From a virus (Duplodnaviria; Heunggongvirae; Uroviricota; Caudoviricetes): a stretch of DNA of 27,773 nucleotides. Numbering within the stretch: position 1 is the first letter of the stretch; each line of letters opens with the position of its first letter. Position numbers and translations under genes: made by a program. Positions 26,290-27,646 of this stretch are shown here, piece after piece. The DNA is taken from the IMG/VR virus record IMGVR_UViG_2531839178_000008, positions 1 to 27,773 of that record; one strand, written 5' to 3'. The notes below the pieces were generated by a model that saw only the letters and a list, made by a program, of their open reading frames with translations, ran no database searches and had not been told where the DNA came from.

Positions 26290-27646
26290 TTATTACCGAA
26301 ATGCTGGCGTTTGACCGGGCATCGGTAAGGCAGTTCGATAAAGTCGGTCGCCTCCAGATTGAGCGCAGTAATCTCAGCAAGGCGAACGTCTGCGGTTATT
26401 TCGGGTATGAAATACCGGGGGCGGAAGCGCTGGGACTCGACCCCAAAAAACTTTATCAGCTTTACCGTGACCCCGATGAACTGCGCAAGGCAGTTTCAAC
26501 CTTCAACAATATTCCCGTCCTGTGCCGACACAAACCCGATTATCCGGGCGCGCCCGCGCGCGAGTACCGGGTGGGGACGACTCATGCCAACAGCGAGTTT
26601 GACGGTACCTATCTGGTTAACGGCATGTCCATCTGGGACAACTCCGCCATCGCGGGGATAGAAACGGATGAACAACGGGAAATCTCATCGTCATATGCCT
26701 ATGTGGCAGATATGACGCCGGGAACCACCCCCGACGGTGAGCCGTATGACGGCGTTATGCGGAATATCGTGGGAAATCATGTGGCCCTGGTCGGCGATGG
26801 CCGGGTAGGGTCGGACTGTCTTGTTATGGACTCTCTCCCTCAGGAGCTAAAACGCATGAAACTGAGTAAAAAAGAAGTGGCGGTGCTTACCGCGCTGGGA
26901 ACCTATCTTGCGCCGCGTCTGGCGCAGGATGCGGCTCCCGGGGATTTGTTACGCCTGATGGCGCAGTATAAGCGTCCGGCAGCTATCGCCAGCGCGGTAA
27001 AAACTGCTTACAGCGAACGGCTGGCACAGGATATGGATATTGAACCGGCGGAGCTGGCGCAACTGATGGAATCAGCAGAAGCCGTACCGGAGCTGGTCGG
27101 GGATGATGATACCGGGTTAACTGACGAGTCGAAGGCATTTGATACCGACAGCCCGATGGAAAGTGTACTGGCGTTGCTGTCCGGCAAAGTTCCTGATGAT
27201 GTGCTGGAAAAAATTAAATCCGCACTGTCTCCGACAACCGACGAAGCCCCCGAAACAAAAGAGGCTGATGTGAAACCCGACGATGTGAAAGTCGATAAAC
27301 CTGCGATGGATGCAGCAATCAGGCTGGCAACTGACCAGGCAACGAAACGGGCTGCTGAAAATTTCCGCGCCGTCCGTGTGGCTGAAGCTGAAGTGCGACC
27401 GCTGATTGGCGATGTGGTGGCGATGTGGTGGCGATGGACTGCGCCGAAGATGTTTACCGTACCGCGCTGGAACAGACGGGGATCGATATTCAGGGTATTC
27501 ACCCCGGTGCGTACCGCAGCATGGTGAAGTTTGCCGTTGAGCAGAAGCAGACGGCCAAATCCTCTCCCCGTGTGGCGATGGATCAGGCCAGCGCATCGAC
27601 GTTTGCGGCAGATTTCCCCGGTGCAAAACTGAAACGAGGTTACTGA
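26286..27646 (+). pseudogene. DUF2213-like head protein (putative scaffold/protease) with its C-terminus frameshifted by an 11-bp tandem duplication
   Basis: N-terminal [35 protein letters not shown]...[12 protein letters not shown] fits DUF2213-type head proteins; removing one 11-bp copy joins the main frame to the 27425..27646 frame (...[22 protein letters not shown]...KLKRGY). Confidence 0.6.
27409..27430. repeat. 11-bp direct tandem duplication (GCGATGTGGTG x2, partial third copy GCGATGG)
   Basis: Copies at 27409..27419 and 27420..27430, partial copy at 27431..27437. Confidence 0.85.

Follow-up and report, generated by a model that had tools for sequence, protein, structure and literature searches.

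The DNA that we analyzed, referred to as the window, is the complete contig AKNA01000005.1 (27,773 nt) of Shigella boydii 965-58 (assembly GCA_000268145.1). It is a lambdoid prophage with genes for Kil, CIII, an N-like protein, a Cro-like protein, CII, replication proteins, NinB/E/H and RusA, together with a Q-like antiterminator, a lysis cassette and terminase genes. The head module is of the Pa193/E217 type and comprises genes for the portal (PF06381), a Mu-F-like protein, a DUF2213 protein, a cement protein, the major capsid protein, E217 gp27-/gp28-like proteins and a tail terminator, after which comes a 438-aa gene without a Pfam call that is interrupted by a contig end. The toprim protein, the TerL and the Mu-F-like protein of the window are widespread in the records; its repressor fragment is absent from them. 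A literature search with the strain name 965-58 found no paper.

The gene of interest is the DUF2213 gene of this module, which belongs to the Pa193-gp24 family (Table 1) and whose product is classed as a putative prohead protease/scaffolding protein. The true start codon, an ATG at 26286, overlaps with the stop codon of the Mu-F-like gene; the program-made list of open reading frames had placed the start at a GTG at 26214. With a curated gathering cut-off of 22 bits, the Pfam model PF09979 (DUF2213, lately renamed Pa193_gp24) scores 157 bits on both the repaired product and the truncated one. The unduplicated 449-aa allele (L001) is matched end to end (E 1e-186) by PHROG 2229, whose label is 'head maturation protease', and it is only this PHROG label that assigns the DUF2213 protein a putative protease activity. 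The sole solved relative is PDB chain 9b40_G (Pa193 gp24), which is matched in the N-terminal domain only (E 6e-4). The gene sits within a head module, with the portal and Mu-F-like genes upstream and the cement and major capsid genes downstream (the window, L001, L003 and L024-L030, as well as the PHROG neighbor labels). In the intact allele the ATG of the cement gene (27649) lies 2 nt past the upstream stop.

Table 1. Features of the frameshifted head gene and of its 3' neighbor, in window coordinates.
Feature	Position	Strand	Basis or remark
Frameshifted DUF2213 / Pa193-gp24-family gene	26286..27527	+	413 codons + stop; GenBank EIQ36519.1 'phage protein', S. boydii 965-58
DUF2213 domain, residues 15-183	26328..26834	+	Pfam PF09979, profile positions 1-167 of 167; spared by the mutation
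Tandem copy 1 of GCGATGTGGTG	27409..27419	+	Read from the sequence; Tandem Repeats Finder
Tandem copy 2 of GCGATGTGGTG	27420..27430	+	11-column alignment gap in CFSAN029787 and RMDEC465; pairwise differences
Partial third copy, GCGATGG	27431..27437	+	With one full copy forms the ancestral TGGCGATG...TGGCGATG 8-bp direct repeat
Out-of-frame tail, 33 aberrant codons and premature TGA (27525-27527)	27426..27527	+	Translation; no homolog aligns
Stranded native 3' end, D381-Y449 + stop	27437..27646	+	Now in the +2 frame, within a 73-aa ORF at 27425..27646
Capsid cement protein gene, start	27649..27773	+	Gene cut by the contig end; L001 annotation, L003 gene calls, Pfam Phage_cement / XM1_gp53

Toward the 3' end of this gene, positions 27400-27439 read CGCTGATTG GCGATGTGGTG GCGATGTGGTG GCGATGG AC. 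Tandem Repeats Finder called a repeat at 27407-27436 with a period of 11, 2.7 copies, 100% matches and a score of 60. A perfect self-match at a lag of 11 runs for 19 nt, whereas at the other lags from 7 to 20 no run in the whole window exceeds 9 nt. A run of 19 nt did not arise in 100 first-order Markov simulations of the window, the longest being 16 nt. By lag-match length, the 11-bp repeat is the longest of the perfect tandem repeats in the window (lags 7 to 20), and it is not due to chance. The earlier note had described a tandem 11-bp duplication with a partial third copy, and the coordinates, the Tandem Repeats Finder call and the lag match bear this out. As read from the sequence, the extra unit is one 11-bp copy, either copy 1 or copy 2, and the ancestral state is one copy followed by the partial copy. 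That note had also proposed that deletion of one copy fuses the DUF2213-like reading frame to the 73-aa ORF. Removal of 27420-27430 does so, with the stop then at 27644-27646, and the resulting ORF from 26286 encodes 449 aa that are residue for residue identical to WP_000587356.1 of Escherichia coli CFSAN029787.

A separate tandem repeat, a perfect 21-bp unit (GGTGGGGCAGGAGCTGCCCGG, 1.9 copies), lies at 10660-10699 within ORF 10369..11121, which encodes a replication-initiator-like protein (HTH_36). The products of this ORF in relatives are 243, 250 and 257 aa long. These 7-residue steps fit in-frame variation in copy number, and the repeats may be iteron-like origin repeats lying within the gene, as in lambda O. 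FDAARGOS_944 has an ISEc20 element (IS110 family) inserted at the 21-bp repeat, between window positions 10678 and 10684.

To place the 11-bp duplication among related loci, we compared positions 26200-27773 with 5,426 complete E. coli genomes by megablast and obtained eight matches at 98-99% identity. The 11 bp are missing from all eight. Seven of the matches are exactly 11 nt shorter than the query, and the eighth is longer despite the missing 11 bp since another part of the gene contains an in-frame duplication of 15 bp. When aligned to the window, CFSAN029787 and RMDEC465 show a gap of 11 columns that falls exactly at the repeat. Ten of the fetched loci (including L024-L030) have the unduplicated junction, and the duplicated one occurs only in the window's own record and in a Logan contig. 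Likewise, we found the 413-aa product on just two contigs, namely that of the EIQ36519.1 record and one in the Logan assembly of run SRR059778. Within the 90% identity cluster (98 members), intact 449-aa forms are found on hundreds of contigs and the 413-aa form on one NCBI contig; all 40 of the cluster members that were read have the short form at the junction. Exact scans of metagenome and viral collections with the duplicated junction gave no match, zeros that are uncalibrated for want of a positive control. Orthologous head genes had been named in the earlier note as the material against which the lesion should be checked, and in both the eight complete E. coli genomes and L024-L030 they are unduplicated. 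By this comparison of sequences, the duplication is a derived state limited to one strain or lineage.

The unduplicated allele suggests how the extra unit may have arisen. It reads ATT GGC GAT GTG GTG GCG ATG GAC (G-D-V-V-A-M-D from GGC on) and, even without the duplication, has two copies of TGGCGATG spaced by 11 bp. During replication, a nascent strand ending in the second TGGCGATG could re-pair with the first template copy, and the re-paired strand would then copy the 11-bp unit again and so gain one extra unit. The slipped-strand origin suggested in the earlier note is thus plausible, given the paired TGGCGATG copies at 11-bp spacing. A Klebsiella phage encodes the identical 10-residue peptide with other codons and has no such repeat; the slippage hotspot is therefore a property of this allele and not of the family.

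Other length changes were seen in the same gene. In RMDEC465, 15 bp (GATGTGAAACCCGAC) of the acidic linker are duplicated in frame (window 27255-27300; L002 ~4040-4070), which yields a 454-aa protein, and the allele of S. boydii ATCC 9905 (P0009) has a deletion of four residues (RLMA). The linker of the DUF2213 gene tolerates slippage indels provided that they are in frame. Independent 1-nt deletions occur in two further loci, at nt 7330 of L021 (CP026877.1) and nt 7470 of L023 (ADUP01000034.1), corresponding to nt 443 and nt 583 of the DUF2213 gene. These represent either recurrent gene decay in related prophages or assembly errors.

As 11 is not divisible by 3, the native reading frame is lost after Met380. 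Residues 1-380 are kept, as the repeat re-encodes V-A-M, and are followed by 33 out-of-frame residues; the stop in the duplicated allele comes 119 nt early. The remainder of the gene survives in the 73-aa ORF, which aligns with the end of the PHROG 2229 profile (positions 359-427 of 428, E 3e-24) and carries a C-terminus identical to that of WP_000587356.1. These results agree with the claim that the C-terminus of a head gene was truncated and replaced, in that residues 1-380 are kept, 33 foreign residues are added and a native end of 69 residues is stranded.

The part of the protein affected is strongly conserved. Nearly all of the best 120 of 2566 homologs are full length (434-449 aa, with 99-100% coverage), and an alignment of homologs places the frameshift point inside an invariant 11-residue motif. 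After the N-terminal domain, residues 335-449 are the most conserved part of the protein, with much of the stretch invariant or nearly so. The 69 lost residues belong to a conserved C-terminal module composed of a helix-loop-helix and a basic tail (FPxAxKLKRGY). The homolog in Klebsiella phage ST899-OXA48phi17.1 has an acidic low-complexity linker in place of the middle part, yet identity is 69% in the N-terminal domain and 66% in the last 115 residues.

An AlphaFold2 model built with 44 homologs was poor overall (mean pLDDT 56) and was best at residues 340-422 (pLDDT 72-86); over the first 190 residues, in the N-terminal domain, pLDDT was 33-61 per 10-residue block. The model predicts a long helix (338-374), a helix-loop-helix (383-393 and 403-422) and a further helix at 430-439 (pLDDT about 45-53), and the frameshift deletes all predicted helices past the long helix at 338-374. 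A Foldseek search of the AlphaFold2 model against the PDB gave no match below E 0.3. These comparisons clarify the layout of the family: the N-terminal DUF2213 domain and a C-terminal helical module of ~110 residues are conserved, and the linker between them is replaceable. The window copy is a disrupted member of this family, which retains the PF09979 domain and the head-module position and lacks the full-length C-terminal architecture.

Two additional features of the family were observed. Two homologs of 655 aa (P0105 and P0114; Cronobacter sakazakii and a Logan contig) have an ADP-ribosyltransferase exotoxin domain (PF03496) after a normal C-terminus, which suggests that the C-terminal end of the protein can carry cargo into the capsid, as with MuF-fused toxins. 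In addition, an AGGAG (26842-46) lies 9 nt 5' of the ATG of Met191 (26856), a residue that is located just past DUF2213 and is invariant in 44 homologs; the Shine-Dalgarno-like GAG upstream of Met191 doubles as a conserved Glu codon. An internal start at Met191 could give a nested scaffold that shares the C-terminus of the longer product, as in Mu I/Z and lambda C/Nu3. In that case both products would be affected by the frameshift.

Two head proteins are the nearest known points of comparison. Pa193 gp24 is a putative scaffolding protein, and its helix-turn-helix (286-326) stays bound inside the capsid at the five-fold vertices, as seen by cryo-EM (PMC11456595). The window protein resembles it in its N-terminal DUF2213 domain (E 6e-4 to the PDB chain and 157 bits to the Pfam model) and in gene order, since the gene lies just 5' of the cement (decoration) and major capsid genes with E217/Pa193-type neck/tail genes nearby. 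In contrast, significant alignment to Pa193 gp24 is limited to the N-terminal domain, and its helix-turn-helix aligns weakly with residues ~285-312 here. The Pa193 structure also has no demonstrated counterpart of the enterobacterial C-terminal module that is lost in the window, whose copy is a frameshifted pseudogene. P2 gpO has a protease as its N-terminal domain, and its C-terminal domain is an internal scaffold 'absolutely required' for procapsid assembly (PMC7552001). We infer a similar layout here, in which a protease-like domain comes first, a variable region follows and a helical module forms the C-terminus; however, no sequence similarity to gpO was detected, and the comparison is one of mechanism and not of membership. 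A role of the C-terminal module as a scaffold needed for procapsids, known only for gpO, would be consistent with its conservation and with the predicted helix-loop-helix.

By analogy with protease/scaffold fusions such as P2 gpO, and considering the conservation of the lost region, the truncated protein most likely cannot target or organize the assembling shell, and its function in head assembly would be lost. Without reversion of the duplication or complementation by a related prophage, the prophage would then be defective in head formation. A possible secondary effect concerns the cement and capsid genes: because the truncated frame ends 119 nt earlier, translational coupling to them, if there is any, would be lost. 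Overall, we consider it very probable that the lesion is a genuine 11-bp slipped-strand duplication in a head gene of a lambdoid prophage and that it most likely disables head formation.

A different outcome for the truncated protein would be that it is tolerated, the N-terminal and middle parts being enough to make heads, or that it acts as a dominant negative against related superinfecting or co-resident phages. The product does keep 380 of the 449 native residues, including the DUF2213 domain and the residues (~285-312) that align weakly to the capsid-binding helix-turn-helix of Pa193 gp24, and the 2-3 copies of the head module held in the genomes of relatives would be targets for interference. 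However, the removed region ranks among the most conserved in the family, and the 413-aa form is absent from the 40 cluster members that were read, from the other fetched loci and from the (uncalibrated) metagenome and viral scans. A single recent lesion in one strain or lineage also gives no sign of selection, and we regard this outcome as very improbable.

We also asked whether the duplication is real. The Logan assembly of SRR059778, which was produced by another pipeline, contains a 12-kb contig (L003) that encodes the exact 413-aa product. The run stems from strain 965-58 itself or from a relative, and the support that it lends to the duplication is that of a second assembly. L003 overlaps the window by 7,110 nt (window 20665-27773, L003 1-7110), and the two share the duplication and nine SNPs against CFSAN029787. 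They differ from one another at nine SNPs and one homopolymer, a run in the portal gene that is A7 in L003 and A6 in the window (24577-24582), such that the portal is intact (513 aa) in L003. Because the portal homopolymer is corrected there, L003 is not a copy of the NCBI consensus.

The window and L003 are sister sequences, yet they have five private differences each within these 7.1 kb, three of which are clustered at 22939-22954. This suggests more than simple clonal divergence, namely a mixing of paralogous prophages in assembly or gene conversion between co-resident prophages. It is possible that the SNP differences reflect another isolate or mixed paralogous prophage copies.

An assembly or sequencing artefact of the draft genome, with the actual gene intact, is very unlikely in light of these data. 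The draft contig does have probable errors, consisting of 1-nt undercounts at 7829, 9149 and 24582 where the runs of relatives are 7-8 nt long, and the undercount in the portal is missing from the Logan assembly. However, an 11-bp non-homopolymer insertion matches no known mode of base-calling error, and a different assembler applied to SRR059778 returned the exact 413-aa product and corrected the portal homopolymer. The earlier note had considered the duplication unlikely to be a base-calling artefact, and the recovery of the same 413-aa product in the separate Logan assembly sustains that view. The draft contig thus contains an internal control, in that the non-homopolymer lesion was reproduced independently and the homopolymer frameshift that could be cross-checked was not.

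The same comparison is informative about the state of the prophage as a whole. Three other frame breaks are present in the window. A T7 run at 7823-7829 (T8 in FDAARGOS_944, the closest relative) splits a gene for a 177-aa hypothetical protein into ORFs 7307..7567 and 7792..8157 on the minus strand. A T7 run at 9143-9149 (likewise T8 in FDAARGOS_944) splits a gene for a cI-like XRE/Peptidase_S24 repressor, which is 235 aa in relatives, into ORFs 8726..9130 and 9079..9462, also on the minus strand. The A6 run at 24577-24582 splits the portal gene into ORFs 24010..24672 and 24708..25559; with A7, the gene is intact at 513 aa in both CFSAN029787 and the SRR059778 Logan assembly. All three breaks are 1-nt undercounts in homopolymers that are 7-8 nt long in relatives, and 1-nt undercounts in long homopolymers are the signature of pyrosequencing-type error. 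The portal split probably stems from a miscounted homopolymer in the draft contig rather than from a true lesion, and a truly broken repressor in a resident prophage would be surprising. Downstream of the DUF2213 gene, L003 has seven complete called genes that are uninterrupted, and the six of these that can be compared with CFSAN029787 are equal in length. It had been claimed that this prophage is accumulating inactivating lesions; that claim is borne out only for the 11-bp duplication, and the portal break is absent from the independent assembly. The duplication looks like a recent single hit and not like one of many, and heavy decay of the prophage should not be assumed.

A phase-variable simple-sequence contingency locus finds no support, as only two states were seen among the eight E. 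coli genomes, the 40 cluster members that were read and the fetched loci, and the expanded one is limited to this strain or lineage. We likewise judge it highly improbable that the duplication serves as a reversible off-switch, undone by precise loss of the unit through slippage, or that the truncated scaffold is retained as a poison of related phage assembly. Were it an off-switch, a few cells would regain an intact scaffold gene, and the prophage would be one slip away from particles. It is extremely improbable that the cell continues to produce the C-terminal module, whether through programmed recoding (a -1 or +2 ribosomal frameshift) or through separate translation of the 73-aa ORF. A -1 shift anywhere in 27426-27524 would regain the native frame and an in-frame ATG (27434) heads the stranded part, but 27409-27527 lacks an X XXY YYZ heptamer and its homopolymers do not exceed 4 nt, the sole purine-rich stretch (GGTGG) ends 2 nt before that ATG and is too near to serve as a Shine-Dalgarno sequence, no promoter-like site was found in 26000-27773, and no relative has the two-frame arrangement, the gene being a single continuous ORF of 434-449 aa among the best 120 of 2566 homologs and the aligned relatives.

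The preferred reading, a slipped-strand duplication that inactivates a head gene, places the locus among the Streisinger-type slippage pseudogenes of Shigella and of cryptic prophages. As in these, a perfect tandem copy has arisen between prior short direct repeats, the unit length is not divisible by 3, and the derived allele is local while the ancestral one is widespread. We noted no difference worth mention, and the case is a textbook instance. It is ordinary prophage pseudogenization, not a new kind of element. For annotation, EIQ36519.1 is a frameshifted version of a head protease/scaffolding protein whose 449-aa form is widespread, and the finding has little reach beyond annotation. Because EIQ36519.1 is a frameshifted head protein, the prophage of S. 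boydii 965-58 probably builds no heads unaided.
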